Shown: positions 2,569 through 27,244, counted from the first letter of the stretch. The stretch: 64,000 nt of DNA from a virus (IMGVR_UViG_3300024275_000002:982-64981); one strand, 5' to 3'. Numbers and translations: made by a program. The notes: generated by a model from the sequence alone, not told the origin.

Positions 2569-2572
2569 GCCT

Positions 2573-2773
2573 TCACCAGTTGCCGCCCGCCGTGTCCGCG
2601 TCGCCGAAGGCGCACGGGCCACACAGCTGCGTGGGGTGAACCGTAGGCGTGCAGCCGCAGCACAAACACGGCGTATGCCAGTCCTTGTCGCCGTCCTCGC
2701 TCGGCGCGACCTGCTTGCCGGCGTCGCGCTCCTGCTGCATGAACTGGTAGCCTTGCTGACGCTTCTGGATCAT
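2573..2773 (-). CDS. Small Cys-rich hypothetical protein
   Basis: MIQKRQQ...CLCCGC...CGPC; start overlaps stop of upstream gene. Confidence 0.55.
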   Translation of the reverse strand: MIQKRQQGYQFMQQERDAGKQVAPSEDGDKDWHTPCLCCGCTPTVHPTQLCGPCAFGDADTAGGNW

Positions 2774-3084: not shown

Positions 3085-3095
3085 ACGTCACCTCC

Positions 3096-6059: not shown

Positions 6060-6079
6060 GTGAGCCCCGTCAGGGTGGG

Positions 6080-6433: not shown

Positions 6434-6486
6434 GGAAGGTCTCCAGTGGTACTAAAGGGCGCGCGTGGGGGCGCGCCCGGCGAATA

Positions 6487-7719: not shown

Positions 7720-7737
7720 GATGTGTACCTCGTGGAG

Positions 7738-8301: not shown

Positions 8302-8303
8302 CG

Positions 8304-8747
8304 TCAGTCTCCCTTACGTACGCGCATGACGCGCTCCTCGAACTTGTTGAGCCCGGGCGGCAGAGCGTTATCGTTCGCCGCCATGTAGTTCTTCACCTGC
8401 TGGACCGCGACCCGCCGTTCGAAGAAAACGAACGGGTGCTCTTGCTTGCGCAGCCACGCCTCCCACGCCACGTCATCGGCGATCGACAGCTTCATCGTCT
8501 TGTCCGTGTACGTGGTGCCGTAGACCGTCTTGAAGCCCTGCACCTTCTGCTCGTCGGCCACCTTCAGCAGCAGGTTCTCGATGCGCTCCATGATCCGGTT
8601 GTACTGCGCTTCTTCCTCTGCCCACACCTTCGCGCGAGCTGACTTCTTTTCGCGCGTCTGGACGTACCGCTTCACTAGCTGGTCGGGCGTAAGGGCCGCC
8701 AGCGAAGCGAGGGCCGCCTCGAACCGTTCTTGCATGGTCATGTTCAT
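8304..8747 (-). CDS. Conserved phage replication-module protein
   Basis: RBS GAAGGAG; coiled-coil N-terminus, GFKTVYGT motif. Confidence 0.7.
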   Translation of the reverse strand: MNMTMQERFEAALASLAALTPDQLVKRYVQTREKKSARAKVWAEEEAQYNRIMERIENLLLKVADEQKVQGFKTVYGTTYTDKTMKLSIADDVAWEAWLRKQEHPFVFFERRVAVQQVKNYMAANDNALPPGLNKFEERVMRVRKGD

Positions 8748-8770
8748 TTGGTCTCTCCTTCAGCAACAGA

Positions 8771-8800
8771 TGTAACTAATATGCTCGCAATCCTAACTAA
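8771..8800 (-). promoter_or_regulatory. TGTAACTAA box in the intergenic region upstream of the 8747 operon
   Basis: Exact TGTAACTAA 8771-8779 plus CCTAACTAA at 8792. Confidence 0.6.
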
Positions 8801-8835
8801 ATGCAAACCGGCCGAGTGCGCCGCAGCCCCCGGGT

Positions 8836-10446: not shown

Positions 10447-10452
10447 TTGGGT

Positions 10453-10761
10453 TCACTTGGGAAACAGCAGCAGGAGCACGAGCGTTTGTTCCATCCGTGC
10501 CAGCTCATCGTCGTTAGACACAACGAACACGAAGCCGCCGGCCTTCTTCATCTCGGCGATCGTGACTTGCTGACGTGGGGTGGGTTGCTTGCCTGGAGCC
10601 TTGGTTTCTACCGCAATGAAATAGCCACCGCCGCAGTTGATGAAATCCAGCGACGGTTCTCCGTATCCGTTCAATACCGGCATGTGCACGTACAGGCCGA
10701 ACCTGCGCAGCACCGCCTTCACCTTGTCCTTTACTTTCCCTTCGGGGGTGCGCCGACTCAT
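10453..10761 (-). CDS. VRR-NUC domain nuclease / resolvase
   Basis: TPEGKVK...GEPSLDF...AVETKAPGKQPTPRQ. Confidence 0.85.
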   Translation of the reverse strand: MSRRTPEGKVKDKVKAVLRRFGLYVHMPVLNGYGEPSLDFINCGGGYFIAVETKAPGKQPTPRQQVTIAEMKKAGGFVFVVSNDDELARMEQTLVLLLLFPK

Positions 10762-11438
10762 CGCGCGCCGCGACCGTGGTATTCGCAGCTCGTCACCGGG
10801 CAATGCTTGCGGCACAGGCCGCTGGGCTTAGCCACGAAGATCCCGCACTTGAACGCCTTCAGGTAGTCGCGCAGCTTCGGCACCAGCGAGTCCCACATCT
10901 CCTCCATCTGCGCGCGGGTGAACGTCTCGCGATCCTTCGCCGACTCGTCAAACCCGTACTGCAGCCAGTGGAATGCGCAGTGCACCGTGTTCACTTCCGG
11001 ATGGCAGTGGAACACCGTCAGCGCAAACACGATCAGCTGCTGCATGTCCTTCTTCCGGTTCTTGCCCGTCTTGTGGTCGTCGACCCACGCCACGTCGCCG
11101 TCGATCGTCAGCACGTCGATGATCGCCCGGCACCACACATCCTTCGCGAAGAACTCGGTCGGCTGCAGCTGCTTGTTCAGCGCGTAGCGGCGCTCCACCA
11201 GCGTGCGGCCCGCCCGATCGATGAAGCCCTGCGCGTACGCCGCGTACAGGCTCATGTTCGCCGGCAGCGGCACGCCCGCGCCGATGTGCTTCTCCAGCGC
11301 CCGGTGCACTTCATCGCCCCACAGCGACGCTTCGTTCTTCGTTTCTTGAAAGTGCTTGAGCACCTTCACTTCTTCGTACTGGCGCGGGCAGGTGTCGAAC
11401 GCCTGCAGCGCCGAATGACTCCATGCGAGCGGCTTCAC
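10758..11438 (-). CDS. PD-(D/E)XK (RecB/Cas4-like) exonuclease
   Basis: WSHSAL..FDTCP, IIDVL..VDDHKTG, terminal LCRKHCPV..C. Confidence 0.85.
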   Translation of the reverse strand: MKPLAWSHSALQAFDTCPRQYEEVKVLKHFQETKNEASLWGDEVHRALEKHIGAGVPLPANMSLYAAYAQGFIDRAGRTLVERRYALNKQLQPTEFFAKDVWCRAIIDVLTIDGDVAWVDDHKTGKNRKKDMQQLIVFALTVFHCHPEVNTVHCAFHWLQYGFDESAKDRETFTRAQMEEMWDSLVPKLRDYLKAFKCGIFVAKPSGLCRKHCPVTSCEYHGRGAR

Positions 11439-11704
11439 TTCATCCCCCCTTTGGGGTTACGCGGAAAGCTCCGATTCTTGTGGGGCGTTTCCACGCGCAA
11501 ATTCTTCGGATCGGTCTGTGCACCGCCCTTGATGAGCGGCACCTTGTGATCCACATCCTTGCCGTCGTGCGGCTTGACCATGCCCAGCTTCTCGGCCTCA
11601 CGACGAGCGCGTTCACGAGCGGCGTGTCTCGGGCCATCGCCCCGCGCCTTCGCGGTTGCTTCCTCGCGTTTATAGTTACGTTTGTAATTCGGAGAACTAG
11701 GCAT
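11435..11704 (-). CDS. Small HNH endonuclease-like protein
   Basis: DVDHKVPLIKGG...NLRV...KNRS. Confidence 0.75.
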   Translation of the reverse strand: MPSSPNYKRNYKREEATAKARGDGPRHAARERARREAEKLGMVKPHDGKDVDHKVPLIKGGAQTDPKNLRVETPHKNRSFPRNPKGGMK

Positions 11705-11705
11705 G

Positions 11706-11882
11706 TCAATTCTCGCTGGTGGTTCGGATGTCAAAAACACGCTTAACCATGTACGGCACGAAGTTGTGGTCGACGTACACGGTGCCGTCCTCGGCGCGGA
11801 GTACGGCTCGGTGACTCACCTTGTCGTACTCCAGCACCTCGAACGTCGTGCCCTTCACCTTGCCGACGATGAACGTCGTCAC
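11706..11882 (-). CDS. Small hypothetical protein (58 aa)
   Basis: Manual translation from GTG: TTFIVGKVKGTTFEVLEYDKVSHRAVL; RBS GGAG; overlaps upstream stop. Confidence 0.55.
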   Translation of the reverse strand: MTTFIVGKVKGTTFEVLEYDKVSHRAVLRAEDGTVYVDHNFVPYMVKRVFDIRTTSEN

Positions 11883-12082
11883 GCGTGCTCCGTCGCCGGC
11901 AGCACCTTCTCGTCCACCTTCACCACCTTGAACCCGTACTTGTTCAGCATCTCGTCCGTCAAGGCACGATCGAACGGCACGCCCGTATCACCGAGCAGCG
12001 TGCCAATCCGTGTGTCCTTGTTGAACTTGATGATCTTGAAACGCAGCCCGGGTGCCTTCGTCGATTCCACGTAGAGCGCCAT
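11879..12082 (-). CDS. Small hypothetical protein
   Basis: RBS GGGAGAG; ORF track. Confidence 0.6.
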   Translation of the reverse strand: MALYVESTKAPGLRFKIIKFNKDTRIGTLLGDTGVPFDRALTDEMLNKYGFKVVKVDEKVLPATEHA

Positions 12083-12110
12083 GACACTCTCCCGAAGTCC
12101 AGATCGTTAC

Positions 12111-12449
12111 TTACAGTGCGGCGCGGATGTGCGCGATGAGATGGCGCACTTCGTTCCACGCGTCACCACCGAGCTGCACAGCCAGCTCCTCGATGCGCTG
12201 CAAGTACGACTCGGCCGGGTGGGCTTCAGAAGGGGATTCGGGTGATGCGTCCGACGAACCCGAATCCGGCGCGGCCACTAGCGTCAACGGCGACGTAGCA
12301 GCCGCTTCGACGTTTCCCTCCGGGGCCGGGGTCGGTTCGTTGGTAGGCTCCGGTGGCGTCGCGTTGGCAATCCAGTCCGGCTCCGGCTCCGTCGAGGCCG
12401 GCGCGGCGTCCGTCGCCGGGGTTTCGTTCTGGTTCAGATCGTCCGACAT
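12111..12449 (-). CDS. Acidic Pro/Ala-rich hypothetical protein
   Basis: RBS AGGAG; low-complexity N-terminus and short helical C-terminus. Confidence 0.6.
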   Translation of the reverse strand: MSDDLNQNETPATDAAPASTEPEPDWIANATPPEPTNEPTPAPEGNVEAAATSPLTLVAAPDSGSSDASPESPSEAHPAESYLQRIEELAVQLGGDAWNEVRHLIAHIRAAL

Positions 12450-12490
12450 AGTACGAACTCCTAAATATTGGTCGCAAAAAATTTAGCCCG

Positions 12491-12682
12491 TCACACCTGC
12501 ACGCCGTGCTTGCGGAGCGCCTTACGAGCGAGATTGACGGCGGCAAAATCAGCCTCCGTCAACGGTGATCCATCGACTCGTTTGCCCTGCTTCATGTGCT
12601 CCATTTTCACGTCGTACAGCCGCTTCAGTATAGCTGCAAGCGTTGCGGGATCGTTAGGAATTCCAACTTGTTTTTTACTCAT
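12491..12682 (-). CDS. Small hypothetical protein
   Basis: RBS GAGGG; follows polA. Confidence 0.55.
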   Translation of the reverse strand: MSKKQVGIPNDPATLAAILKRLYDVKMEHMKQGKRVDGSPLTEADFAAVNLARKALRKHGVQV

Positions 12683-12694
12683 GACTTTCCCTCG

Positions 12695-14602
12695 TCAGTG
12701 CTTCGCAAGACCATAACGCCTGTGCATGCCACCCTCGCTATTCAGCGGCAAGTCAGGTGCCCACACGGGCGGAATCTTCATCTTCGCCATCAGGCGCTCG
12801 AACGCCCACGGTGCCTCAAACTCATGTGCAACAAAGACACCTTCGTCGTGCACGCTGTGCACCCACCACACCGGGCGGCCCTTCGCTTCCTGAGCAAACG
12901 ACAGGCACTGGCCGAGCACGATCAGGCGAGCCAGCGCCTGCACGATGTTCTCGACCATCTTCGCGCCGTAGATCTTCTCGCGCGACTTGCCGTTCCAGAA
13001 CGTCCACTCCATGTATCCGGTCTCGGGGTCTTTCTCCCGCTTCAGCTCCGGGTACAGGATCTTCAGGCCGCCGGGCAGTACGATGCCGTCCACACACGTC
13101 TTAACTACTCCACGGTAATCCACGTTCACGCCAACCTGTCCACGCGCGATGCACGCGAGTGCTTGGTTGCAGCGGTCCCACAGCGCCGTCACGCGCTTGT
13201 GCGAGTTGCGGTAAATCTTGCACACCTCCTCGCACAGCTTCATCTCCAGCACCAGCGGCTTGCCGTCCTTGCCCTTCGCCTCGCGGCGCACCGAGACTTG
13301 GAACATCAGCGCGCCCTGCCCGAAGCCGAACGCCAGCTTCACGCGCTTGCCCATCTGCCGCTCGTCCGGGTCGAGCGCCTTGTCGATCGGCCGGCCGTAG
13401 ATCTTCTCGGCCATGATGCAGTAGATGTCCGGCCCCTCGCCACGGTCGTAGCGCCGGTACGCCTCGATCATGTCCTCCTGGCCGGCGAGCCAGTCGAGCA
13501 CGCGCGCCTCGATGTTGGAGCTGTCGCCCACCACGATCGCGTAGCCCAGCTCAGCCATCAACGCATCGCGCAGCTTGCTGCCGCGCTTGAGCGCCTGCCA
13601 GTTGATGCTGTCGCCTGCCGACAGCCGGTGCGTGCCGCTCGCGCCGCTGTACTTCAGGTAGATCGTGGCGAGCCCGCGCCGCGACATGGCGATCAACCGC
13701 TCGGCACCCTTCTCCGCGATCGTCGTCTTGTTCTTCAGCCGGGCCTCGACCAGCACCTGCACGCGGAAGTCCGGATGCTCCTGCAGCTTCTGCATCGCCT
13801 CGTCCGTCTTGGCGAACGCATACGTCAGCGGCGCGATCGGCTCGCGCTCGGCCGGCGGCTTCTTCAACCACGTCGGACTGATCTTCATCGGCGGGTCGAC
13901 CCCCAGCGCCTTGAGCGCCGTGGCGAACCGCTCGTTGCTCATCAGGTCGTCCTTCGAGACGCCAGCCTCCAGCATGAGGCGTTGCTTTTCTTCCCGCAAG
14001 TCGGCCGCATAGTCACTGAGCATCTGCGCATCCAGCTGCACGTGCGGCTCGGTGAACATGCGGATGATCTGGTCGTTCAGCTGCAGCTCCGACTTGCTGA
14101 AGTGCGGGGCCATGCGCATGAACAGCTCGTACGTCAGGTCGACGTCGTTGCAGCTGTAGCGGCCGTACTGCGCGAGCCGTGCCGGCCCGAAGTCCGCGTA
14201 GTGCATGCCACGCACCTTCAGCACTTCGTCGCCCTTCTTGCCGATGCCGTACCGCTCGGCCAGCTTGTCGAGCGACAGCCTGCCGTTCGCACCATGGAGC
14301 GCCCGCGCCATGCCCAGCGTATCGAGCCAAAGGCGCGGGAAAATTCCGTAGTGGTACGAAGTAATGAGCCCGTCAAAATGGGCGTGGTGGCACAGCACGG
14401 CCTTCGATTCCAGCTTCAGCGACTTCAGATGCTTGCCGATCTCCGGCCGGGGCACCCAGTACGTGCGCTCGTTATTCACACGCACGCTCACCAGGATCGC
14501 CTCGAAGCGCGGGTCACGGACGTACGCTTCCGTCGTCATCGACGACAGCGTGTAGCCGTCGCCGTAGAACGTCTCGTAGTCCAGCACGACCAGATCCATC
14601 AT
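12695..14602 (-). CDS. polA: Family A DNA polymerase with N-terminal 3'-5' exonuclease
   Basis: LDYET and HHAHFD exonuclease motifs; DSSNIEAR (A), KRVKLAFGFG (B), VHDE (C). Confidence 0.93.
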   Translation of the reverse strand: MMDLVVLDYETFYGDGYTLSSMTTEAYVRDPRFEAILVSVRVNNERTYWVPRPEIGKHLKSLKLESKAVLCHHAHFDGLITSYHYGIFPRLWLDTLGMARALHGANGRLSLDKLAERYGIGKKGDEVLKVRGMHYADFGPARLAQYGRYSCNDVDLTYELFMRMAPHFSKSELQLNDQIIRMFTEPHVQLDAQMLSDYAADLREEKQRLMLEAGVSKDDLMSNERFATALKALGVDPPMKISPTWLKKPPAEREPIAPLTYAFAKTDEAMQKLQEHPDFRVQVLVEARLKNKTTIAEKGAERLIAMSRRGLATIYLKYSGASGTHRLSAGDSINWQALKRGSKLRDALMAELGYAIVVGDSSNIEARVLDWLAGQEDMIEAYRRYDRGEGPDIYCIMAEKIYGRPIDKALDPDERQMGKRVKLAFGFGQGALMFQVSVRREAKGKDGKPLVLEMKLCEEVCKIYRNSHKRVTALWDRCNQALACIARGQVGVNVDYRGVVKTCVDGIVLPGGLKILYPELKREKDPETGYMEWTFWNGKSREKIYGAKMVENIVQALARLIVLGQCLSFAQEAKGRPVWWVHSVHDEGVFVAHEFEAPWAFERLMAKMKIPPVWAPDLPLNSEGGMHRRYGLAKH

Positions 14603-14874
14603 GTCCCCCGGCGGGCAGCTTCCAGCATGCGCTCCAGCAGGTTCTGGTGCGGCTCATACGAGACCCCCAGTGCCTCTCGCAGCATGTCCAGCTCGGAGCG
14701 GGCATCGCTCAGCATCTCGCGCACCATCGTGGCCATCTCCGGCAGGTCATGCCAGCTGTGCATGGTGCCCGGCTCCGGCTCGCCCTTCAGGGCGTTCGCG
14801 GTGCGTTCGAGCAGCGTCGACAGACGATCGTTGAGTCCGGCGAACTCGTCCTCTGGCAGATCAGATTGTCCCAT
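14599..14874 (-). CDS. Hypothetical protein
   Basis: Coupled overlaps at both ends; MGQSDLPED. Confidence 0.55.
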   Translation of the reverse strand: MGQSDLPEDEFAGLNDRLSTLLERTANALKGEPEPGTMHSWHDLPEMATMVREMLSDARSELDMLREALGVSYEPHQNLLERMLEAARRGT

Positions 14875-15074
14875 CAGTCGTCCCCTTCCCACGTCAGCAG
14901 ATCACCATCCTCGTCGGCCGTGTAGCGGCCGGGCGGGTACGGTTCGCCTTCACGCCGATCCTTCTCCTGCACCCACGGGCCGTTGCAGCAGCCACACGCA
15001 TCGATGTAGAGACCGTGCTTGCGCGACAGCTCGCTCAGCTCCGACAGAAACGCCAGCAGCTTCTTCTGTTCCAT
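14874..15074 (-). CDS. Hypothetical protein
   Basis: RBS GGGGAGG; MEQKKLL...IDACGCC. Confidence 0.6.
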   Translation of the reverse strand: MEQKKLLAFLSELSELSRKHGLYIDACGCCNGPWVQEKDRREGEPYPPGRYTADEDGDLLTWEGDD

Positions 15075-15271
15075 CACGCCCTCCCCAGTGCGACATCGAT
15101 GCGGTGCATCAACGTGTGCGGCACGTTGACCGTGATCGCGCTGCTTTTCCATCCACGTGCGGCGTTCGGATCGTAGCGCTTCAGGTTCGCCAGCTCATCG
15201 AGCAGCGTCTGCAGCTCACGCATGCGCGCGGCGGCGCTGCGCAACACGTCTCCCATTGCGTCATCAGCCAT
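15074..15271 (-). CDS. Hypothetical protein
   Basis: Coupled small ORF. Confidence 0.55.
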   Translation of the reverse strand: MADDAMGDVLRSAAARMRELQTLLDELANLKRYDPNAARGWKSSAITVNVPHTLMHRIDVALGRA

Positions 15272-15455
15272 GGTTGAACTCCAGCACGACCACCTTGTCG
15301 TCCGGGAAGTAGCGCGCGCCAGACGGCACGAGCCAGCCCACCGTGGTGTGATCGACGTCGACCTTCACGCGTGTTGCATCCGGCAGGCTGGCCAGGAACG
15401 TCGCCACCTCCGATGCGTTAGCACGACTAAACGAAAAGTGTTGGCTAGTCATCAT
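15264..15455 (-). CDS. Hypothetical protein
   Basis: MMTSQHF; coupled. Confidence 0.5.
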   Translation of the reverse strand: MMTSQHFSFSRANASEVATFLASLPDATRVKVDVDHTTVGWLVPSGARYFPDDKVVVLEFNHG

Positions 15456-15718
15456 GCCCCCGTGCGTTCCCACTCCGCGACCAGCTCCTTGATGACCTCG
15501 ACGCCGCGCCCGGCCGGCGTCAGGTTCGTCGCGTGCACGCATCCCTTCTCAGGGAACACGAGCAGCACGAACGGCACCCGATCGCCGGTCGAGTCGATCA
15601 GCGCGTTGTCGATCGCGCCGATCAGCCCCGGCATGCTATCCAGCAGCCTCGCTACCGCCACCGGCTGCTCCGGCGTCACCAGATCCGTGAGGTTCGGGTT
15701 GTCCACTGCGTTTGTCAT
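15452..15718 (-). CDS. Hypothetical protein
   Basis: RBS AGGAG; MTNAVDNP. Confidence 0.6.
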   Translation of the reverse strand: MTNAVDNPNLTDLVTPEQPVAVARLLDSMPGLIGAIDNALIDSTGDRVPFVLLVFPEKGCVHATNLTPAGRGVEVIKELVAEWERTGA

Positions 15719-16133
15719 CGTCGGTCTCCTTTGCTGCGATATACGCGGCGACCACCGCCGCACCCATAGTTCCATACGACAGCCGCTTCTGTTTCTGCCG
15801 TAGCGCCTTCACGGCCGCGCAGATGATCTTGTGCTGGCGCTCGGCCTGCGCGTACGTCGAGCAGCGATCGCAGTACACGTCTTTCCTCTTGCCGGAGAAC
15901 ACCATCGTCTCGAACAGGACCGGCGTTGAGCTGAAGAAGGAATGGTCGAGCCCGAGGAAGATCGTCGATACGCGGATGTGCCGCCCGAACTTCGTGGTGG
16001 CGATGCGTCGGTTCGGCTGATCGAACATCCTGGCCCATGCGACCAGCTTCTCCGGGTCGAAGCCCCAGCGCGTGCCGTCGCCGACGTCAAAGCGCACGAC
16101 TTCCTTACCAATCAAAACGAAGTGGTCACTCAT
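15636..16133 (-). CDS. Hypothetical phage protein
   Basis: MSDHF...VSTIFLGLDH...LFETMVF...YSTY-like phage motif. Confidence 0.6.
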   Translation of the reverse strand: MSDHFVLIGKEVVRFDVGDGTRWGFDPEKLVAWARMFDQPNRRIATTKFGRHIRVSTIFLGLDHSFFSSTPVLFETMVFSGKRKDVYCDRCSTYAQAERQHKIICAAVKALRQKQKRLSYGTMGAAVVAAYIAAKETDDDKRSGQPEPHGSGDAGAAGGGSEAAG

Positions 16134-16443
16134 CGCGCGGCCCCTGTGCTTGCAGGATCTCGGCGCGCAGCTGCGCGCACATCGCGTAATTGCGGCGGTA
16201 TTCAGCCCACGCGCGCATCGCTTCACGCGTCGAGCGGTACCAGCGCCAGAGGCAGAGAATCGACATCGCCGCGCCGCTGCAGCTGATGGCCAGCGCGAAG
16301 TCACGGCCGGCCCCGGCGTTGCCGGCTGCGAGCCACAGGTTCAGGCCGAGCGCGCCCGCGTTCGCACCGAACACGATCGTTGCGTGCGGGAGGAACTTCG
16401 GAGGAAATTTCCCCGGTTCCGGTGGCAAATCAGGAAGGTTCAC
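16126..16443 (-). CDS. Small membrane protein
   Basis: Two hydrophobic segments. Confidence 0.5.
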   Translation of the reverse strand: MNLPDLPPEPGKFPPKFLPHATIVFGANAGALGLNLWLAAGNAGAGRDFALAISCSGAAMSILCLWRWYRSTREAMRAWAEYRRNYAMCAQLRAEILQAQGPRDE

Positions 16444-16735
16444 GCAGCGCTCCGACAGGGCCGAACTCCAGCACGCCGAGGCGCGTGCCGTTGCATACCA
16501 GTGTCGCGCGGTCGACCTGTACCCGCTCCTGCTGGAACGTCGTGAAGATGCGGCCGACCGACATATCCATCGTGTCGATCTCGACCACGCACTCGTCCCC
16601 ATCGAAACGGATCTCGACCCGCGCTTTGGTGCGCAAGTTAGCGCCTACATAGTCACCGAGCTGCACGACCCGCGATTCGACCCTCACGAGCCGATCGCGC
16701 ATGTCACGCAGCAGCTTATTTGCTTCGTCATCCAT
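16430..16735 (-). CDS. Hypothetical protein
   Basis: RBS GGAG; MDDEANKLL. Confidence 0.6.
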   Translation of the reverse strand: MDDEANKLLRDMRDRLVRVESRVVQLGDYVGANLRTKARVEIRFDGDECVVEIDTMDMSVGRIFTTFQQERVQVDRATLVCNGTRLGVLEFGPVGALREPS

Positions 16736-19441: not shown

Positions 19442-19537
19442 GATGTTCACCTTCTATCAAGTAAAAAAGCAGGGCGTCGTGCTGACCGCCCCTTCCAAAC
19501 CTCGCACATCAAGGGGAACGAGTGCGAGGGGCCAACC

Positions 19538-19903
19538 TCATTCGCGCGGCAAGCGCAGCTCACGCAGCCACGTCGGCCCGAGCCGATTGCGGATCGCCTG
19601 CAGCGGGCCAGGATATTTCGCCACGAGCCAGCCCTTGTTCAGCTTCGACTTCCAGCAGCGGCCGTTCGCGCGGGCGAAGTCGAGGAGTGCCGCACACTCG
19701 TCCGGCTGCAGGTCCGCCAGCGACGCCCAGCGCGGCTTCTCGCCCACGCGGCCGGCGAAGCGCACCGCGATGATCGCGCTCTCCGGGCAGCGCTCCTCGC
19801 GCATGATGAACTGCTTCACGCCGGCCTCATCCGACCAGACGGTGTGAATGTGCGTGACGCCACGATCGTGCTTGACCGTGATGATGTAGTTGTTGAACTC
19901 CAT
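19538..19903 (-). CDS. Hypothetical early protein
   Basis: MEFNNYII. Confidence 0.55.
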   Translation of the reverse strand: MEFNNYIITVKHDRGVTHIHTVWSDEAGVKQFIMREERCPESAIIAVRFAGRVGEKPRWASLADLQPDECAALLDFARANGRCWKSKLNKGWLVAKYPGPLQAIRNRLGPTWLRELRLPRE

Positions 19904-19904
19904 C

Positions 19905-20129
19905 TCACACCTCGTCGAACTCGCGCACACGGCGCTTGGCCATGAAACGCGCGGATTTTTTCGAGTCGCACACCGGACGCAGGAACACCGCGTCGATGAT
20001 GTCCGACAGCTGGCACTTCGCAATGCCGACGACCACCCGCTTCGCCGCATCGCTGCTAACGGCCGCCGTGGTCACAAACTGAATGCCCGTGCTGCTACGC
20101 ACGCGCACCTTGTACAGGTTCGCCTGCAT
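19905..20129 (-). CDS. Hypothetical early protein
   Basis: Leader motif then MQANLYKV. Confidence 0.6.
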   Translation of the reverse strand: MQANLYKVRVRSSTGIQFVTTAAVSSDAAKRVVVGIAKCQLSDIIDAVFLRPVCDSKKSARFMAKRRVREFDEV

Positions 20130-20188
20130 CTCAATCTCCTTCAAGCAAGTAAGCGTGGTAGCGCCACGCACGCAAACTACTGTCCCGG

Positions 20189-20827
20189 TCACGCCTGATA
20201 CACGGTGTCGCCAGACACGTACAGGTAGCACTCGCCGGCTGCATGCGCCAGCTCGGTCAGCTTCTCGCCGAACTTGCCCAGCCCCCGATCCCAGTACCCC
20301 GCGCCGTGGTGGTTACGCGTGAGCCAGAAGTCATGCCCGGCCTGCGTGTACGAGTAGTCGTACTCCTCGAACACCACCTTCCAGATTCCCTCGGGCACCG
20401 AATCGATGAAGTCCTCGCAGTCCACGCGCATCTTCGCCTGCGTCACGGGATCGATCGGGAATCCCTCCATCCCGTCGTGCTCCTCGTCCGTGCTCGACCA
20501 CAACGCGCACGTCATGTAGCCCTGAACGAACTCCTCGACCCAGCGCTCGCGCGGCGTGGGCAGCACGCCTGCCTTCGGGTACTCCTCGTACACCATGTCG
20601 ATCGCCGCCTCGCGATCTGCTGCCCGCATGAAGAACTCGATACTGCCGTCCGGTGCGACGGCGCGCCACAGCGGATCACCGATCCCCCAGTACGCACCAC
20701 CCTCGTCGTACCCCTGATCGAGCGGGCACACGTGCACGTACAGCTCAACCTTCGCTTCGTGGTCGCCGTGCGTGTTGTGCCGGCCCATCGGCGCGCCGCG
20801 CGCGCAGCTCACCTCACTGAGTCTCAT
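20189..20827 (-). CDS. Acidic early protein
   Basis: GAPMGR...GYDEGGAYWG...AGHDFWLTRNHHGAGYWDRG. Confidence 0.75.
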   Translation of the reverse strand: MRLSEVSCARGAPMGRHNTHGDHEAKVELYVHVCPLDQGYDEGGAYWGIGDPLWRAVAPDGSIEFFMRAADREAAIDMVYEEYPKAGVLPTPRERWVEEFVQGYMTCALWSSTDEEHDGMEGFPIDPVTQAKMRVDCEDFIDSVPEGIWKVVFEEYDYSYTQAGHDFWLTRNHHGAGYWDRGLGKFGEKLTELAHAAGECYLYVSGDTVYQA

Positions 20828-20831
20828 GATC

Positions 20832-21101
20832 TCAGTCCTCCGGGTACGGGTCGCGCTTGCCTGCCAGCACTTCAGCGAGGTAGCGCGAGCGCGCGACGTA
20901 GTGATCCTTGATCGACTCGGGCGACACGTCCGGCCCGATGCCGTCCAGCAGCTCGGAGATCTCGGTGCCGATCATGGCTGCGTTCTCGACGACGTACAGT
21001 GCACGTGCGATCGGCGCATACTCGGGCGCGCTCGGCTCGTAGCACGCCAGCTTGTCGCGCAGCTTGGCCGCGAGATCCTTCAGTTCGCTGTTGGTATCCA
21101 T
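20832..21101 (-). CDS. Hypothetical early protein
   Basis: RBS GGGAG. Confidence 0.6.
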   Translation of the reverse strand: MDTNSELKDLAAKLRDKLACYEPSAPEYAPIARALYVVENAAMIGTEISELLDGIGPDVSPESIKDHYVARSRYLAEVLAGKRDPYPED

Positions 21102-21102
21102 G

Positions 21103-21825
21103 TCAGTCTCCCAGCGTCATCACGTCACGCGCTGCCCAGTACGCATCTTCCTCGGCCTCGATGCGCTCCTGCTCGGCCTCGTGCTCCAGCACACGTATGC
21201 ACTCGTCGATCAGCTCGTGCGCCGTCTCCTCGATATAGTCGTCGGCGTCGCTCTCGATGCCCCACAACGCGAAGCGATAGTCGATCTCGACTTCATCGTC
21301 GTCCATGTTGTCCGGCAGGTGCGTGACGATCACACCCACGTAGCGCCAGTCGTCGTTACACCACCCACGCAGGAACTCGTAGTCGAGCCGCACTGCCTCG
21401 GCCGTGATCTCGCCCGGCGTGAGCGGCTTGTTCGGGTCGCGCCCGGGCACATCGCGCACTTCGGTCTGCACGCGATACACCTTCTCCAAGCCGCCGAACT
21501 TCGTGTCGACCACAGGCTCGCCGATACGCACACGCACCTTGCGCGTCTGAGCCAGTCGCTTCACCAGCTCGGCCTTCGCCTCGGGGCCAAGCCCCCAGCA
21601 GTCACGCTTGGCGATCCGCGTTGCCTCGGCCACGTCGTAGTAACGCTTTCTACCGTGGTCGGTATTCAACACACGCTCGCCGGGCAGCTTGTCACGGCTC
21701 GTCCAGTCGCTCACCGGGCCATGCCCGTCGTCGCGCTCCCACGGCGCTTCGCCGCTGTCATCGTCCTCGATGTTCACGCGAAAGCGATACCCACCCTTCT
21801 CAATCACATCACCGTCGTCCAACAT
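21103..21825 (-). CDS. Acidic early protein
   Basis: PWERDDGHG...WRYVGVIV...ALWGIES; Glu-rich C-terminus. Confidence 0.75.
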   Translation of the reverse strand: MLDDGDVIEKGGYRFRVNIEDDDSGEAPWERDDGHGPVSDWTSRDKLPGERVLNTDHGRKRYYDVAEATRIAKRDCWGLGPEAKAELVKRLAQTRKVRVRIGEPVVDTKFGGLEKVYRVQTEVRDVPGRDPNKPLTPGEITAEAVRLDYEFLRGWCNDDWRYVGVIVTHLPDNMDDDEVEIDYRFALWGIESDADDYIEETAHELIDECIRVLEHEAEQERIEAEEDAYWAARDVMTLGD

Positions 21826-21908
21826 GGTCGTTCTCCTCGCGCGATCGCTCGCGCTTCGCCTTCAAGCAAGTAAGCGGACATGCCGAGCCCGCATCGGTTT
21901 GCCCGCGC

Positions 21909-22520
21909 TTAGTCGGACAGCAGTTCCTTCGCAATGTCCTGGATCACCCAGTCCATGTAGATCATCTGGCCCGTGGTCGTGCGCCCCCACACGGTGAGCC
22001 CGGCGAAGTCGGTGTCGACCATCTCGCCACGCTCGGCCAGCTTGCCGGCGAGCCAGTCGCTCACGGCCCAGTGCTCGTACGCTTCGATCCTGTCAGGCTC
22101 GATCCGATTGCGATCGCACGCACTGCGCCACGCATCGTCCTCGTCGCTGTCGGTGTCGCCGTCCCAGTGCTCGTCGAGGTACGCCTCGACCGCAGCCTTG
22201 TCTTTGACGTCGGGCTCGGGCAGCTCGTTCTCGTCGGCGTGGTCCTTGATGTCGTTCTTGGTCAGCGCCACGTAGTCGCCGTTGACCTCGTACATCTCGA
22301 ACCCTTCCGCTTCGGCCGCACCCTGCCAATCGTCCTTCACGCTGATCGCCATGATCTGCTCGTCGTCGATGCCAAGGTCCGCCAGCTGATCCGAGTTCAG
22401 ATCGGGCACGATCTTCTGCAGGCCCGAGACCAGCATCGAGACGCAGTAACGCACCTCGTCCTGCACCAGCTTGCTCGCGCGTTCGCTGACTTGCTCGATG
22501 CTCAGTTCTTTCTTTTCCAT
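21909..22520 (-). CDS. Highly acidic early protein
   Basis: EAYEHWAVSDWLA..L...GE...WGRTTTGQ; leader motif. Confidence 0.75.
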   Translation of the reverse strand: MEKKELSIEQVSERASKLVQDEVRYCVSMLVSGLQKIVPDLNSDQLADLGIDDEQIMAISVKDDWQGAAEAEGFEMYEVNGDYVALTKNDIKDHADENELPEPDVKDKAAVEAYLDEHWDGDTDSDEDDAWRSACDRNRIEPDRIEAYEHWAVSDWLAGKLAERGEMVDTDFAGLTVWGRTTTGQMIYMDWVIQDIAKELLSD

Positions 22521-22551
22521 GATGTTTCTCCTTCAAATAAGTGGCTACGGT

Positions 22552-22779
22552 TTACATCTCGACCATAGCTGCGCGAATGGTCGTCTTGGTGTACGGCGCA
22601 CCGTCCGGCGTCTGAGTGATCTCCATCTCTGCAAGCGCGTCGAGCATCACCTCGGCCGCGCGATCCTTGCTTCGCGAGTTCCGCACGCAGCTACGCGCCA
22701 AGTTGTACAGCCCCTCGTCATTGTTGATCCAGAGGCTGACGTTCCAGTGGTTCCAATTCTTGTGTCCGTTGTATGTCAT
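22552..22779 (-). CDS. Small early protein
   Basis: YNGHKNWNHWNVSLWINNDEGLY; leader motif. Confidence 0.75.
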   Translation of the reverse strand: MTYNGHKNWNHWNVSLWINNDEGLYNLARSCVRNSRSKDRAAEVMLDALAEMEITQTPDGAPYTKTTIRAAMVEM

Positions 22780-22842
22780 GATCCTGCTCCTTCAAACAAG
22801 TGGTGGGCAAACCGATATTGTCTCAGCTTGTCCGGGTCAAAC

Positions 22843-23319
22843 TTACTGCAGCGCGTCGGGCAGTGCGATCTCCGCGCCCACGACCGACGCCACGTAGCAC
22901 CGCATCGCTGCAATCAGCAGCGTCGGCCCCTCGAAACGCTGGCGACGCTTGCGTACAGCCCACGAGTCCACGCCGTATCGCATGCCGCCACGCGCCGTCA
23001 TCTCGTCCCAGCGCGCGATCGTGCCGTCGCCGAGATCATCGCTGGTGATCGCATACCACTTGCCCGTCACCTTGTGGCGACGCGTTGCGATGCCACCCAT
23101 GGCCACGATCCGGCCGCCCTCGTGCCAGTCGGTCGACGGGCTGAAGCGGTAGTAGACATACGACCCCGGCTCGATCTCGCACTCGATCCATGCGGGCGTC
23201 GTCTGTTCTTTGCGGCAGATCTTCACGACCCGATACTCGTGGAGCTGGAGTTCGAGCGCAGCGGCCACGGCCCAGTCGAGCGCAGCCCCTTCGAGCTTGC
23301 TCACGTCAGCGAGTGCCAT
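22843..23319 (-). CDS. NinX/DUF2591-family protein
   Basis: LEGAALDWAVA...SPSTDW..GG.I...GPTLLIAAMRCYVAS. Confidence 0.75.
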   Translation of the reverse strand: MALADVSKLEGAALDWAVAAALELQLHEYRVVKICRKEQTTPAWIECEIEPGSYVYYRFSPSTDWHEGGRIVAMGGIATRRHKVTGKWYAITSDDLGDGTIARWDEMTARGGMRYGVDSWAVRKRRQRFEGPTLLIAAMRCYVASVVGAEIALPDALQ

Positions 23320-23542
23320 GATCCTTCCCCTCGAACAGGCGCAGTGCAGCCTCGTGCGCTTCATTGTTGATCTGGTCCATGCGCTCCGCGATCATGATCG
23401 TATCGAACAGATCGTAGAAGCGGCGCACGCCCACCGGGTCGAGCCCGTGCGGAGCACACAAGATGCCCTTGAGCATCATGAACTCGTCTTTATTGCCCTT
23501 GAAGTTGGCGAGCAACAGCTTGGTGCGGTCGATCTTGTTCAT
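23306..23542 (-). CDS. Hypothetical early protein
   Basis: RBS GGGAGG; MNKIDR. Confidence 0.55.
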   Translation of the reverse strand: MNKIDRTKLLLANFKGNKDEFMMLKGILCAPHGLDPVGVRRFYDLFDTIMIAERMDQINNEAHEAALRLFEGKDHGTR

Positions 23543-24006
23543 TCCGACCTCCCGGTGAACTGGTGCACGTTGCGCGAACCCACGTGGGGCTGGAGCTTGA
23601 AGTTGCGGCGGATGCGCCAGCCCGCCGTCGTGTTCGGTGCCTCGTACACGAACTTCTCGTACTGCCCCAGCAGCTCGGCACTGAAGATGCCGATCAATGC
23701 CCCGCCCGGTGTCATGATGGTAGCGAGGCAATTCATGCGCATGAGCGCGAACTCGGCGATCTGCTGCAAGCTGTCCCGAGGCAGCATGACGCTGCCCACA
23801 GCCGGCAGGTTGTCGACCTGACTGTTCCAGTTGTCGGCGAACGCACAGTCGACCGGCAGACCCAGCCAATCGCGTATCAGCTCGCGGCCGTGCTCGTTCA
23901 GGTCGCACAACAGGCGCATGCCGAACGCGCAGCTCTCGCCGGTCAACACGTTGATGCCCAGCTGCGGCATGTCGTTCCAGCTGTTGATCGTGATGCTGTC
24001 TTTCAT
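23539..24006 (-). CDS. Hypothetical early protein
   Basis: Leader motif; GINVLTGESCA..MRLLCDL. Confidence 0.7.
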   Translation of the reverse strand: MKDSITINSWNDMPQLGINVLTGESCAFGMRLLCDLNEHGRELIRDWLGLPVDCAFADNWNSQVDNLPAVGSVMLPRDSLQQIAEFALMRMNCLATIMTPGGALIGIFSAELLGQYEKFVYEAPNTTAGWRIRRNFKLQPHVGSRNVHQFTGRSE

Positions 24007-24038
24007 GATGTTTCTCCTTCGCCTTCTAACAAGTTGAA

Positions 24039-24392
24039 TTACATGCCGCGACAGAATGCCTGATGCGCTTCCCAGTCGATCGTCTCGTGGTCGATCCCGG
24101 GGATGAACTTCGCCTTCTCGGGCTCCGGCTCGGGCGACATGATGTCATCGCCTTCCACCTTGTCCCAGCCCACGTATCCCACGAACGCCGGGCTCACGGC
24201 TGCCTTTTGCAAGACCTCCATGAAGCGTGAAGATGACTTGGTGTACCGGTCGCACCCGTTCGTGTCGCGATAATGCACCTCGCCCGGCACGATCTTCGTG
24301 ACGATGCCCGTGTACAGATTCGTGGTGTACTTGATGCGCACCACATCGCCCACGTCGATCGTGACGCCGTTCACATCGACTGCCTTGACCAT
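24039..24392 (-). CDS. Hypothetical early protein (SH3/KOW-like N-terminus)
   Basis: DVNGVTIDVGDVV. Confidence 0.55.
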   Translation of the reverse strand: MVKAVDVNGVTIDVGDVVRIKYTTNLYTGIVTKIVPGEVHYRDTNGCDRYTKSSSRFMEVLQKAAVSPAFVGYVGWDKVEGDDIMSPEPEPEKAKFIPGIDHETIDWEAHQAFCRGM

Positions 24393-24406
24393 GATCGCTC
24401 TCCACG

Positions 24407-24589
24407 TCAGCCCACCATGTTGACCGAACGCACGACATAGCCGGCCTGCTCGGCGATGCGCGCTGCCTGATCGCGGTTGTTCGCGTCGACCTGCACGCGT
24501 GGCGTCACGCCGTCCTTCGGCTCGACTTCCAGCTCGTACAGGTGCGCGGCCGGCCGCTCGCCGAGCCGTATCTTCACTGCGTTTTCCAT
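24407..24589 (-). CDS. Small early protein
   Basis: Leader motif; VQVDANNRDQAARIAEQAGY. Confidence 0.65.
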   Translation of the reverse strand: MENAVKIRLGERPAAHLYELEVEPKDGVTPRVQVDANNRDQAARIAEQAGYVVRSVNMVG

Positions 24590-24683
24590 GATGCCTCACC
24601 CTCTAGCAAGTTAAGCGGACGTGTACCGGGGACGTATGTTCGCCCCGGACAAACCGAGCCCGCAATCGGTTTGTCAGGCAAGA

Positions 24684-24974
24684 TCAAGTGGACTCGACCA
24701 GCCCGTACTTCGCTGCCAGCTGACACGCCTTCGAATACGACTCGGCGTACTTACCCCCGTCGAGCGTGCTGAACGACACGCCCGATTTGAGTCCATGAAA
24801 CACGTCACCATCGTCGCCGAACGCGCACGTCGGCCACGCCTTGACCAGGATCACGATGGTGTGCTCGTCGTTACACACGATCACGTCACCATCCTTCACG
24901 CTGTCATCCCACTGCGTGCGATCGTATGCCTCGCCGTGATACAGGTGCGGCCACTTGTGTACGTTGACCATCAC
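24684..24974 (-). CDS. Small early protein
   Basis: EAYDRTQWDDSVKDGDV...AWP. Confidence 0.65.
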   Translation of the reverse strand: MMVNVHKWPHLYHGEAYDRTQWDDSVKDGDVIVCNDEHTIVILVKAWPTCAFGDDGDVFHGLKSGVSFSTLDGGKYAESYSKACQLAAKYGLVEST

Positions 24975-25219
24975 TCGCTCTCCTTGAAATAGAACGACTG
25001 GCCCGACCAGATAATGACGGCGTTCTCCGGGTCTTGCCGAAACTCCACGCGAATGTCGCCGCAGCAGTTCGGGATATAGCCGTCCGATTCGTCGATCTGC
25101 ATGTCGATCGACGCGGCATACTCGTCCGCGAACTTGCGCTCGTCCATCAGCTCCTCGTCGCCCAGCGCGCGCTGATACACCACCTCGCCGGACGACGGCT
25201 CATAGATCACGACGTACAT
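24971..25219 (-). CDS. Small acidic early protein
   Basis: RBS AGGAG. Confidence 0.6.
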   Translation of the reverse strand: MYVVIYEPSSGEVVYQRALGDEELMDERKFADEYAASIDMQIDESDGYIPNCCGDIRVEFRQDPENAVIIWSGQSFYFKESE

Positions 25220-25228
25220 GATCGTCTC

Positions 25229-25561
25229 CTACAGGCAGTCACGCAGCGTCATGCGCTCGACGCGAAACAGATACGCTTCGCCCGGTTGCGCGAACGACGT
25301 CGTGGTGCCCGGCCCGAGCAACGCCCGCACCATGCCACGCGGCACCACCATGTCGCCCGTGTGCCGGAACGAATCGATCAGCGAGTCGGCCGCGTCGCGC
25401 TTCGTCTCGTACAGCCCGAAGCTATCGTCAAGACAGCCCGGAATGCCGTTACTTGCGCGCCAGACGGTGCGGTTCAGTGCACGCTCCTGCACCTCGTCGC
25501 GCTTGAGCGGCCGGTCATCGGCGATACGCTCCATTGCCTCGTCAAACGTGAGCTTTTTCAT
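25229..25561 (-). CDS. Small early protein
   Basis: Leader motif; GCLDDS. Confidence 0.65.
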   Translation of the reverse strand: MKKLTFDEAMERIADDRPLKRDEVQERALNRTVWRASNGIPGCLDDSFGLYETKRDAADSLIDSFRHTGDMVVPRGMVRALLGPGTTTSFAQPGEAYLFRVERMTLRDCL

Positions 25562-25638
25562 GTCAAATCTCCTCGCGATTGCTCGCGCTTACGCCTTCAA
25601 TTAAGTGGCGGACAAACACATATCCGCATCGGTTTGTC

Positions 25639-25821
25639 TCAGTCGGTTTCCCAGCACGCGAACCGAACCTCGTAGTGGCCGGCATTGTAGGCGGCCTGAA
25701 TGGCAACCTGCGCCCGCGAGCGCTCTTGTATCGTGCGGAACTCCAGCAGCTGCGACGTGATCGAAACCACGGGCACCTCGCCGTCATCCCACGTGCTGAT
25801 GGTCACAAGCATCTGGTACAT
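25639..25821 (-). CDS. Small early protein
   Basis: RBS GGAGG; coupled. Confidence 0.5.
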   Translation of the reverse strand: MYQMLVTISTWDDGEVPVVSITSQLLEFRTIQERSRAQVAIQAAYNAGHYEVRFACWETD

Positions 25822-26015
25822 CACGGCCTCCGATCCTTGCGGTCGGTCGCGAACCACGGCCGTGCCTCGTTGCGCATGCGTTCACGCAGGTGGAAGAACA
25901 GGCCCGTGCGGGCCTCGCCTTCCTCGGGTGCGTTCTCGATGAACCACCACAGCGCATGCTCGATCACGAGCGTGTCCGTGTATTCGATCATCGCTTTGAG
26001 CGACATTGGTTTCAT
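25821..26015 (-). CDS. Small early protein
   Basis: ATGA overlap; HALWWFIEN. Confidence 0.55.
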   Translation of the reverse strand: MKPMSLKAMIEYTDTLVIEHALWWFIENAPEEGEARTGLFFHLRERMRNEARPWFATDRKDRRP

Positions 26016-26344
26016 GATGCACCTCGCGCAATCATCTTCCGGGCGAACTCGACCAGCTTCGCGCGGCAATCTTCCAGCGGCGGCGGTGCGCCATGCTGTC
26101 GGAAGTGCGCAGCCATCCATGCGCCGCACTCCTCGTCGACCTCATACGCCCACACGCCCGGCACGCCACACGCGGGGTCTTTCAGCTCGTCAAACACGGC
26201 GGCCGACAGCTCGCCGACCTGCGCGAAGTAGTCGTACAGCTCGACCATGCCGCCGCTCCAGTTGGCCAGATCGGGTATCTCGCCGAACCCTTGCGCGATC
26301 GCCACAGCGGACACAGCCACTTCCCGAATGTCAGGATGGTGCAT
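26012..26344 (-). CDS. Small early protein
   Basis: RBS GGAG; GVWAYEVDE. Confidence 0.6.
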   Translation of the reverse strand: MHHPDIREVAVSAVAIAQGFGEIPDLANWSGGMVELYDYFAQVGELSAAVFDELKDPACGVPGVWAYEVDEECGAWMAAHFRQHGAPPPLEDCRAKLVEFARKMIARGAS

Positions 26345-26474
26345 GGCCTTTCTCCAGTGCGCTGCAGATCGTGCTCAGCGTGTTGGCAATGCCTTCGGTC
26401 ACAGCCGGCAGCGCGACGAACAGCACCAGCGCCATGCCCACCGCGAGGAACGCGTACGGAATCAGGTTTCGCAT
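26331..26474 (-). CDS. Small membrane protein (47 aa)
   Basis: Manual translation MRNLIPYAFLAVGMALVLFVALPAV; RBS GGAG. Confidence 0.5.
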   Translation of the reverse strand: MRNLIPYAFLAVGMALVLFVALPAVTEGIANTLSTICSALEKGHAPS

Positions 26475-26477
26475 GGC

Positions 26478-26777
26478 TCACTCCGCTTCGTTGTCGCGTG
26501 CTAGGCAGTGATCCAGATACGCGCCGTTGATTGCCCGGGCGATCTGCGCCCGCGTCGCGCCCGCCATCACGCGTGCTTCGAACAGGTAGATCGTGGCGTC
26601 GCCGTACTTCTGGTCGCGTTGCCACAGCACCCCTGCTGCCGCTACCGCGATCTCGCTGCGCTGCCACTCGAACCCGGACACGTGGCGTCCGACGAACGCC
26701 ACCACGTACACCTGCGCATGCAGCTTGCCGCCCGCTACGTCCAGCGGCGGCAGGTGCACAACTTCTCGCTCTTTCAT
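26478..26777 (-). CDS. Small early protein
   Basis: Leader motif. Confidence 0.6.
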   Translation of the reverse strand: MKEREVVHLPPLDVAGGKLHAQVYVVAFVGRHVSGFEWQRSEIAVAAAGVLWQRDQKYGDATIYLFEARVMAGATRAQIARAINGAYLDHCLARDNEAE

Positions 26778-26837
26778 GGTCCTTCTCCTTCTAGCCAGTT
26801 AGGCGGACAAACACAGCTCCGCATCGGTATGTCCGGG

Positions 26838-27086
26838 TCAGTACGCCTCGACCGTGCAGTTCTCGATCTGCATGCCGTTCGGCGACACGCCCGGATCGAT
26901 CAGCATCTGCACGCATGCTGCCACATCGATCGATCCACCCGGCTTCAGCAGCTCGCGCGCTTCCGCCTTCGGCATGCCCCGGCAGAACTCCTCGTCGCGC
27001 ATCGCCACGGCCATCGCTGCCTTGTACAGCGCGCGCTTGTCGTGCACCGTCACATCGAACATGACGTTGAATGCTTTCGTTTTCAT
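26838..27086 (-). CDS. Small early protein
   Basis: Leader motif then MKTKAFNV. Confidence 0.65.
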   Translation of the reverse strand: MKTKAFNVMFDVTVHDKRALYKAAMAVAMRDEEFCRGMPKAEARELLKPGGSIDVAACVQMLIDPGVSPNGMQIENCTVEAY

Positions 27087-27159
27087 GGTCCTTCTCCTTC
27101 GCCTTCTGGCAAGTGGGCCGGACAAGCCGATACGAGCATCGGTCTGTCCGGCGAGTGAA

Positions 27160-27231
27160 TGTAACTAATCGCTTCGAAGTCCTTAGTTACATCAGCTTCT
27201 ATTATCGCCCCGGACACTGGGGTTATGTCAA
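27160..27231 (-). promoter_or_regulatory. Early sigma70-like promoter with downstream inverted operator pair
   Basis: Minus strand TTGACA (27231-27226)-N19-GATAAT (27206-27201); TGTAACTAA-N14-TTAGTTACA at 27160-27191. Confidence 0.65.
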
Positions 27232-27244
27232 ATGGTCCGGGTTG

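Follow-up and report, generated by a model that had tools for sequence, protein, structure and literature searches.

The window analysed here is a 64,000-nucleotide (nt) stretch of the virus record IMGVR_UViG_3300024275_000002 (positions 982-64981), and our subject is a two-part element, a short hairpin followed by a translation leader, that recurs among the small genes of its early region. The source record is a 64,981-bp virus sequence with direct terminal repeats and ~64% G+C, almost all of which the window covers. Gene orientation diverges from about 29-30 kb, with terminase, portal-type and other virion genes on the plus arm and, on the minus arm, the small-gene array and, behind it, replication genes (family A DNA polymerase, SNF2 helicase and DUF927 primase-helicase). 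The array holds 22 minus-strand genes of 47-240 amino acids (aa) each between 27086 and 19190, in agreement with the roughly 22 genes reported by an initial annotation made from the sequence alone, and Pfam matches exist for just three of them (NinX, DUF7249 and DUF3846). A host-type early promoter-like site stands at the head of the array.

The leader has the form ACTT-N4-GARGG and includes the Shine-Dalgarno (SD) sequence, which lies 5-9 nt from the ATG. Written as ACTTNNNNGARGG, it matches 11 times in the window against 0.36 expected (~30-fold enrichment), with nine of the 11 matches on the minus strand between 19450 and 27114; a tenth early copy, at 26799-26787, is an ACTG variant. The ten shared leaders listed in the initial annotation as ACTT-N4-GA(A)GG are therefore all present, as nine exact minus-strand copies and the ACTG copy. 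They coincide exactly with those ten gene starts in the early operon that do not overlap an upstream gene, and the leader was found neither at the overlapping early genes nor in the intergenic gaps further down the arm. It is mostly unpaired in predicted folds, and two of the leaders (3 and 8) also hold a small GNRA-loop hairpin before a second SD sequence. The ACUUG part did not extend SD pairing when compared by eye, without the host's own rRNA, with the 3' tail of 16S rRNA.

Ahead of six of the ten leaders lies a hairpin of 29-30 nt with a GACA...TGTC base, at coordinates within 1-3 nt of those first given for six such copies. Five of the six begin 0-9 nt past the upstream stop codon, one of them overlapping it, and the hairpins lie 2-6 nt ahead of the leader. 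The unit had been described as stop, hairpin, leader and gene; this order holds for most copies, but copy 1 has no stop, being located behind the early promoter in the 5' leader of the operon, and the copy at 24676 is parted from its own leader by a second, unrelated hairpin. The helices span 9-15 bp (the longest ~15 bp, most 9-13 bp), four of the six fold stably, and the predicted folds revealed no alternative structure between hairpin arms and SD sequence. None of the six is followed by a T-run, which sets them apart from intrinsic terminators, and no Rfam covariance model matched between 19000 and 27600 up to E = 1.

Table 1. Coordinates of the leaders, hairpins and upstream control features of the early array in the window
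Feature	Position	Strand	Remarks
Early promoter-like site	27201..27231	-	TTGACA (27231-26), 19-nt spacer, GATAAT (27206-01); read from sequence
TGTAACTAA...TTAGTTACA palindrome	27160..27191	-	At transcript start; operator-like; separate repeat family; 11-bp perfect arms
Hairpin 1	27120..27149	-	In operon 5' leader before first early gene; covariance model 36.8 bits; about -16 kcal/mol
Leader 1	27102..27114	-	
Hairpin 2	26805..26834	-	Inner stem decayed
Leader 2	26787..26799	-	ACTG variant; 20 nt identical to leader 1, through and past ATG
Hairpin 3	25610..25639	-	1-nt overlap with upstream TGA; inner stem decayed
Leader 3	25594..25606	-	Followed by GNRA mini-hairpin (25587-25574) and second SD
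Hairpin 4	24647..24676	-	7 nt past stop of 95-aa gene; G002 has a hairpin at the same junction
Leader 4	24599..24611	-	Homology to the 98% relative stops here; gene behind it replaced
Leader 5	24022..24034	-	Without hairpin; orthologous gene in G002 lies directly behind a hairpin
Hairpin 5	22805..22833	-	
Leader 6	22789..22801	-	
Leader 7	22530..22542	-	Without hairpin
Hairpin 6	21876..21904	-	In the 98% relative a 118-aa gene sits inside
Leader 8	21859..21871	-	Followed by GNRA mini-hairpin (21854-21839), missing in the 98% relative
Leader 9	20138..20150	-	Preceded by unrelated 6-bp hairpin (20169-20153)
Leader 10	19450..19462	-	Directly behind terminator-like hairpin with T-run (19495-19463); G002 has GACA hairpin at this junction

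Relatives of the phage, all of them uncultured, were retrieved via the polymerase. The closest, with 98% polymerase identity, is represented in several samples (L016, L030-L033). The others are G002 (71%, three hairpins), L024 (64%, three hairpins in the stretch covered), L018 (62%, one hairpin in the stretch covered), L021 (57%, likewise one in the stretch covered), G001 (55%, a complete 62-kb genome with seven hairpins) and L019 (54%, the inner-arm version of the hairpin only). Hairpin and leader occur together in at least six relatives, L031, G002, L024, L018, L021 and G001, in the arm upstream of the polymerase, where the leader takes the form ACTYGNTAGGAG (exact matches number six in the arm of G001, where 0.33 are expected, and four in L024, where 0.35 are expected). 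They were not found in distant relatives, namely those with polymerases of at most 41% identity (L008-L015, L025) and the cultured Pseudomonas phage KPP25. Exact hairpin patterns retrieved nothing from IMG/VR beyond G001, and in cultured phages the only near-identical DNA found for the region was an 88-nt match to a Ralstonia phage. A covariance model built from 22 hairpin copies detected no other copy in the 64 kb of the window or over the 391 kb of window and relatives combined, and none in the control region, late arm or replication arm of the window or of the complete G001 genome; the element is thus confined to early arms.

Alignment of the 22 copies shows how pairing is distributed along the hairpin. 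Three of the four GACA/TGTC pairs are invariant and the fourth is kept in 20 of 22 copies; the two positions inside them on each side are unpaired in ~45% of copies; the next six inner-stem pairs covary; and the loop is free at 3-9 nt. The inner arms fall into three unrelated types, AACCGA/TCGGTT in the window, TTCCAAG/CTTGGAA together with TCGCA/TGCGA in G002, and TGGTTG/CAACCA in the G001 group. Overall, 84% of cells are paired, compared with 69% in column shuffles and 33-42% with slid partners, and double-change cells number 54 where 25 are expected. Compensatory changes are found both within one genome (C-G to G-C between the G002 copies at 3159 and 5038) and between genomes (G-C to A-T in orthologous G001 and L024 copies behind a common 376-aa gene). 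Arm length varies from 9 to 13 bp within G002, and palindromy mostly reaches to a 3-4-nt centre. Conservation and covariation, for which the initial annotation had proposed an Infernal-type covariance model, are thus both evident among the relatives.

The genes between these modules behave very differently. A tblastn search with 25 early and middle proteins of the window, at E below 1e-4, retrieved no homologue from the early arm of G001 or from loci L024, L018 and L019, and G002 has counterparts of just seven; G001 and L024 have three middle genes in common, but not the small early genes. Because the early genes turn over and the module stays, this non-coding element is more conserved than any gene that it flanks. 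Since related phages retain it where every gene that it separates is replaced, we conclude that the hairpin-leader unit is a real, conserved functional element of a small lineage of soil phages, and apparently one that has been undescribed so far.

Eight indel or replacement events distinguish the array of the window from that of the 98% relative, and the junctions of four lie inside a leader or a hairpin, two of them with direct-repeat signatures. In the first, cassette gene 1 with hairpin 2 and leader 2 is present only in the window, and the junction falls in the 20 nt common to leaders 1 and 2. In the second, the gene behind leader 4 has been replaced, the replacement beginning exactly at the leader. 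In the third, a 118-aa gene together with its own leader is inserted within hairpin 6 of the relative; a 9-nt stretch of the 5' arm is repeated on both sides of the insert, and the upstream copy is half a hairpin. The fourth is an indel of the GNRA mini-hairpin of leader 8. The remaining four affect gene interiors or boundaries at which genes overlap. Enrichment of junctions at the modules is in part trivial, because viable indels have to fall between genes. In the comparison with G002, an insertion of two genes with a leader separates hairpin 4 from the leader of the next gene common to both phages, and at one orthologous junction a terminator-like hairpin with T-run in the window corresponds to a GACA hairpin in G002.

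The initial annotation had suggested that gene gain and loss be compared with the hairpins and that the units act as recombination joints. The first comparison links four of eight events to a leader or hairpin, and the second suggestion stands as far as these junctions lie inside modules; exchange at a fixed point, as in integrons, does not fit junctions in leaders and 5' arms or a product that is half a hairpin. The pattern fits recombination at short repeats, as has been described for the promoter early stem-loops (PeSLs) of T4-type phages, which consist of a sigma-70 promoter and a terminator (Arbiol et al. 2010, PMC2839356; Comeau et al. 2014, PMC4122927). Like PeSLs, the modules are short regulatory units that recur between non-essential early genes and may serve as joints for modular shuffling among close relatives, and indel or replacement junctions lie within them. 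Unlike PeSLs, they contain neither promoter nor terminator, and their order is hairpin followed by ribosome-binding leader.

By its architecture, the closest published analogue, though not a fellow member, is the start-associated sequence (SAS) and extended start-associated sequence (ESAS) of cluster K mycobacteriophages, whose function has remained unknown since 2011 (PMC3203893; 2025 survey PMC12699233). SAS is described as a conserved, asymmetric, SD-containing motif that always points the same way and precedes, by 3-8 nt, the start codons of some non-structural genes, and this description applies to our leader; about half of the motifs (here six of ten leaders) are preceded by an imperfect inverted repeat at a variable spacer; and the repeat consensus differs among sub-lineages, here as the inner-arm types. 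However, the module does not match the 13-nt SAS consensus or the 17-nt ESAS arms, and it belongs to another host phylum and phage type. Departures in the arms preserve pairing here, whereas Pope et al. report that those in ESAS do not (PMC3203893), and the repeat of our module lies close against the stop codon of the preceding gene and need not be near a start.

Beyond the observed anatomy, conservation, covariation and indel junctions, we infer an action on RNA, either cleavage or stabilisation, and a trans-acting factor. The reading that we favour, tentatively and as plausible rather than probable, is that of a two-part mRNA punctuation module in which a base-recognised hairpin is a processing or 3'-end signal and is coupled to a translation leader, the whole doubling as a recombination joint. 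The module would act inside a long early mRNA. Its leader, ACUUG-N-U-(A/U) fused to the SD sequence, would be a standard, autonomous ribosome entry site used by every early gene that lacks translational coupling to its neighbour. The hairpin behind the upstream stop, with its 4-bp GACA/UGUC base, loose 2x2 region, covarying upper stem and free loop, would have its base read by a factor with sequence specificity, most likely a product of the phage lineage itself, which would mark a message cut site and/or a protected 3' end. Every cistron would in this way acquire an identical 5' leader and 3' hairpin, and the units could secondarily be joints for the gain, loss and replacement of early genes because of their short repeated homologies.

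Several features support this punctuation model, among them the leader enrichment, the restriction of the hairpins to early arms, the conservation, pairing and compensatory changes, the gene turnover, the indel junctions and the terminator-like hairpin that stands at one orthologous junction in place of a GACA hairpin. In addition, the hairpins are tightly packed between stop codon and leader, and their varying arm length and loop size fit a folded hairpin better than fixed duplex half-sites. A sequence-specific reader is required whether RNA or DNA is recognised, because the stem base stays fixed as its surroundings drift, and the lineage-specific inner arms suggest that this reader is phage-encoded. 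Several observations weigh on the other side. Wobble pairs in the true stem number 9 G-U to 5 A-C, which is not significant, so the sense RNA is not singled out (before loop columns were excluded the count was 11 to 3, and we do not rely on this bias). A palindromic operator in DNA, evolving together with the protein that binds it, would be expected to show covariation between lineages just as well. GACA and TGTC are always 19-20 nt apart, a constancy that a duplex site would need, and the TGGTTG/CAACCA inner arms keep their sequence in five lineages, beyond the needs of folding. One G001 copy abuts a promoter -35 hexamer and one lies just before an intrinsic terminator. Two copies in the window (26834 and 25639) fold poorly, having lost most of the inner stem. 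The start-associated palindrome of an unrelated element, L067 (described below), occurs also inside coding sequence and beside iterons, in the manner of a DNA site. Finally, the early genes yielded no candidate for a nuclease or an RNA-binding protein, NinX, DUF7249 and DUF3846 being the only products recognised.

Many of these points lead to the strongest competitor, in which the hairpins are DNA-level sites. Duplex palindromes would be bound by a lineage-encoded DNA-binding protein that silences or times the early operon by blocking elongating RNA polymerase, following the logic of L5 stoperators or of a KorB-like global regulator, and the leader would be a mere ribosome-binding site needed where a site breaks translational coupling. 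L5 stoperators are 13-bp asymmetric sites that are present in both arms and overlap the early promoter. The modules resemble them as many copies of one short site in short operon gaps; unlike them, they are 30-nt palindromes and restricted to the early arm. We regard this alternative as possible, though less likely than RNA punctuation. It accounts for the fixed spacing of the outer half-sites, the inner-arm sequence kept across five lineages, the non-significant wobble bias, the G001 copy (its copy 1) directly upstream of the early promoter -35, and the L067 palindromes that lack an SD sequence; the presence of a plasmid-type ParA and of RepL makes a silent state plausible, and Pope et al. 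preferred DNA binding for the analogous ESAS (PMC3203893). On the other hand, a dimer reading a duplex needs neither palindromy to a 3-4-nt centre in most copies nor arms that vary in length as in G002, and the compensatory change within one genome is likewise unneeded. The positions of the copies, 0-9 nt past stop codons and 2-6 nt before leaders, and their absence from control region, late arm and replication arm also speak against it, as does the fact that the early promoter already has a different operator-like family, TGTAACTAA.

A second alternative is passive RNA structure without a dedicated factor, in which the hairpin locks GC-rich upstream sequence, frees the AU-rich leader and forms a generic barrier to 3' exonucleases, similarity among the copies being due to common descent and gene conversion. 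In intercistronic repetitive extragenic palindromic (REP) hairpins, Csy4 sites and tunable intergenic regions, a hairpin sets segment stability and uncouples the expression of neighbours. The intercistronic position of our hairpins, which they have in common with these systems, is consistent with such a role, as are the four stable folds and the mostly unpaired leader, and the two decayed copies retain unpaired 5'-arm sequence, which looks like descent rather than selection. We nevertheless consider the passive reading unlikely, since GACA/TGTC is near-invariant at 55% polymerase identity, with all early genes different, while loops and the NN positions are randomised, and one copy lies directly before an intrinsic terminator, which would itself make a passive barrier superfluous. 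The invariant, phage-lineage-specific base also distinguishes the element from REP hairpins and engineered insulators, and no such family was found in hosts: a search of 185,579 species genomes, made with the exact window-type pattern only, gave 25 hits, all of them singletons from unrelated taxa, which led us to reject a host REP/REPIN family.

Cleavage by host RNase III, as in the early region of T7, would release monocistronic mRNAs ending in half a hairpin. In T7, one such site precedes the first gene, within the 5' leader, and further sites lie between cistrons; natural RNase III substrates comprise approximately two helical turns. Our hairpins follow this layout, including the copy before the first early gene, are mutually similar, and in many copies have an internal 2x2 loop. 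Their helices are much shorter, however, so that they are not classical substrates with a two-turn irregular helix; a host enzyme would leave the lineage-specific inner arms unexplained, and neither Rfam nor any other source gave a match. This makes RNase III sites quite improbable as an explanation.

Still less probable is that recombination is the primary function, whether at attC-like or other structure-specific sites or through a selfish, spreading small palindromic element. Such sites would explain why cassettes are gained and lost at junctions within the module, the full turnover of genes between conserved joints and, as in integron attC, a conserved stem base with a variable, covarying inner stem that includes unpaired positions, located behind promoterless cassettes in a one-way array. 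In contrast to attC, there are no RYYYAAC/GTTRRRY cores (the base is GACA/TGTC), and junctions lie in the leader or 5' arm instead of at a fixed 3'-core point, one product being the half hairpin. Half of the indels fall outside the module, the hits in host genomes are singletons and do not form a family of copies, and neither a recombinase domain nor the tyrosine recombinase IntI was found among those open reading frames (ORFs) scanned with Pfam or PHROGs; an integron-like site-specific mechanism is not supported. Promoters, whether of T4 PeSL type, host sigma-70 or N4-like hairpins for an injected RNA polymerase, are hardly credible in spite of the repeated units ahead of early genes and of a 2245-aa virion-arm protein of unknown function, because a promoter scan finds no sigma-70-like hexamers in the modules, a transcription start site would not fit into a motif whose SD sequence is just 5-9 nt from the ATG, leaders also exist without hairpins, a host-type promoter already heads the array, and the 2245-aa protein matches no polymerase.

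The conservation of this punctuation among phages that have no early gene in common has wider implications. Phage early arms are where genes for host takeover and anti-defence accumulate and turn over fastest, and a module kept across them could represent a cis code for the expression, and probably the acquisition, of such genes. As a proteobacterial counterpart to SAS/ESAS with clearer stem covariation, it offers a second system in which function can be tested. The conserved motifs could be used to locate early arms and cassette boundaries in uncultured phage genomes, and for high-GC hosts the two parts of the module may prove of use as standard expression elements.

Similar tags occur in other Burkholderia-type elements, which could provide further test cases. 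The 240-aa early protein of the window (21103-21825, -) has no Pfam match but more than 340 homologues, many of them located in Burkholderia and Paraburkholderia genomes and plasmid-like contigs; the family also occurs in an Achromobacter phage and in the plasmid-like contig L066, where it lies beside a TrwC relaxase and ParA/ParG. These locations hint at a Burkholderia-type host group and at gene traffic between phage early arms and the small-gene regions of plasmids. The unrelated 52-kb element L067 (JGI Ga0495587_0000150; also L068) has an array region at 1086-16599 in which a 14-nt perfect palindrome is fused to AGGAG, 5-7 nt before ~20 start codons, with 18 copies perfect over 19 nt. Six more copies without an SD sequence lie at 1086-2101, two of them inside coding sequence, beside ACTTGTGC iterons; this iteron region looks like an origin. 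L069 (3801-15391; ENA LEMO22 scaffold_58) also has a small-gene array, with ~11 copies of a 15-nt GGTTCATAATGAACC-type palindrome, most of them just upstream of ribosome-binding sites. Because L067 and L069 both contain the 240-aa gene and each has its own start-associated palindrome, this family bears a local tag in each array. A bolder generalisation, which we hold to be doubtful, is that each phage or plasmid-like lineage has a private early-gene punctuation code read by a lineage-encoded factor (a Cas6/Csy4-like endoribonuclease or a clamp-type silencer), such that the GACA hairpin with the ACUUG leader, TCGGAAATTTCCGA-AGGAG in L067 and GGTTCATAATGAACC in L069 would be three dialects of one undescribed system that also drives cassette exchange. 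If so, a newly captured gene would have to gain the local tag for expression and co-control.

The control region upstream of the array has repeats of its own. The promoter-like stretch is 97.7% identical to L031, and its 19-nt spacer explains why a strict promoter scan did not pick it up. An inverted repeat, CCGGAC...GTCCGG, brackets its -35 hexamer and spacer (window 27211-27239, -) and resembles the hairpin base of the module at a spacing 3 nt shorter; it could be due to chance or be a variant site. The TGTAACTAA/TTAGTTACA family looks like the true operator family of the lineage: a similar box lies behind the promoter-like site of L024. A lone TTAGTTACA box is located at 18.4-18.5 kb, ahead of a promoter-like site before a 447-aa gene.

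A small ParA ATPase (L034 858-1565, -) and a RepL-type initiator (L034 2129-2599, +) are encoded at the start of the record (window 1-1618), and this gene content suggests a plasmid-like prophage state. The hairpins were rejected as a parS-type centromere of this ParA: ParA and its 166-aa neighbour were not found in G001, which has seven hairpins, in a search with the phage's own genome as its only sensitivity control. The 2245-aa virion-arm protein (window 47445-54182, +) has no Pfam or PDB sequence match and matched one PHROG of unknown function; with a host-type promoter heading the array, an N4-type injected RNA polymerase was likewise rejected. At L005 14150-14230 in G002, the homologue of the 95-aa gene is 5'-truncated and abuts a very long gene on the opposite strand with no control region, a junction that is either a genome rearrangement or an assembly chimera. 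Within the early arm of G001, a stretch of ~830 nt of AT-rich non-coding DNA with several short repeats (L006 7100-7930) follows the first early gene, hairpin and terminator, and may be an origin or a second control region.

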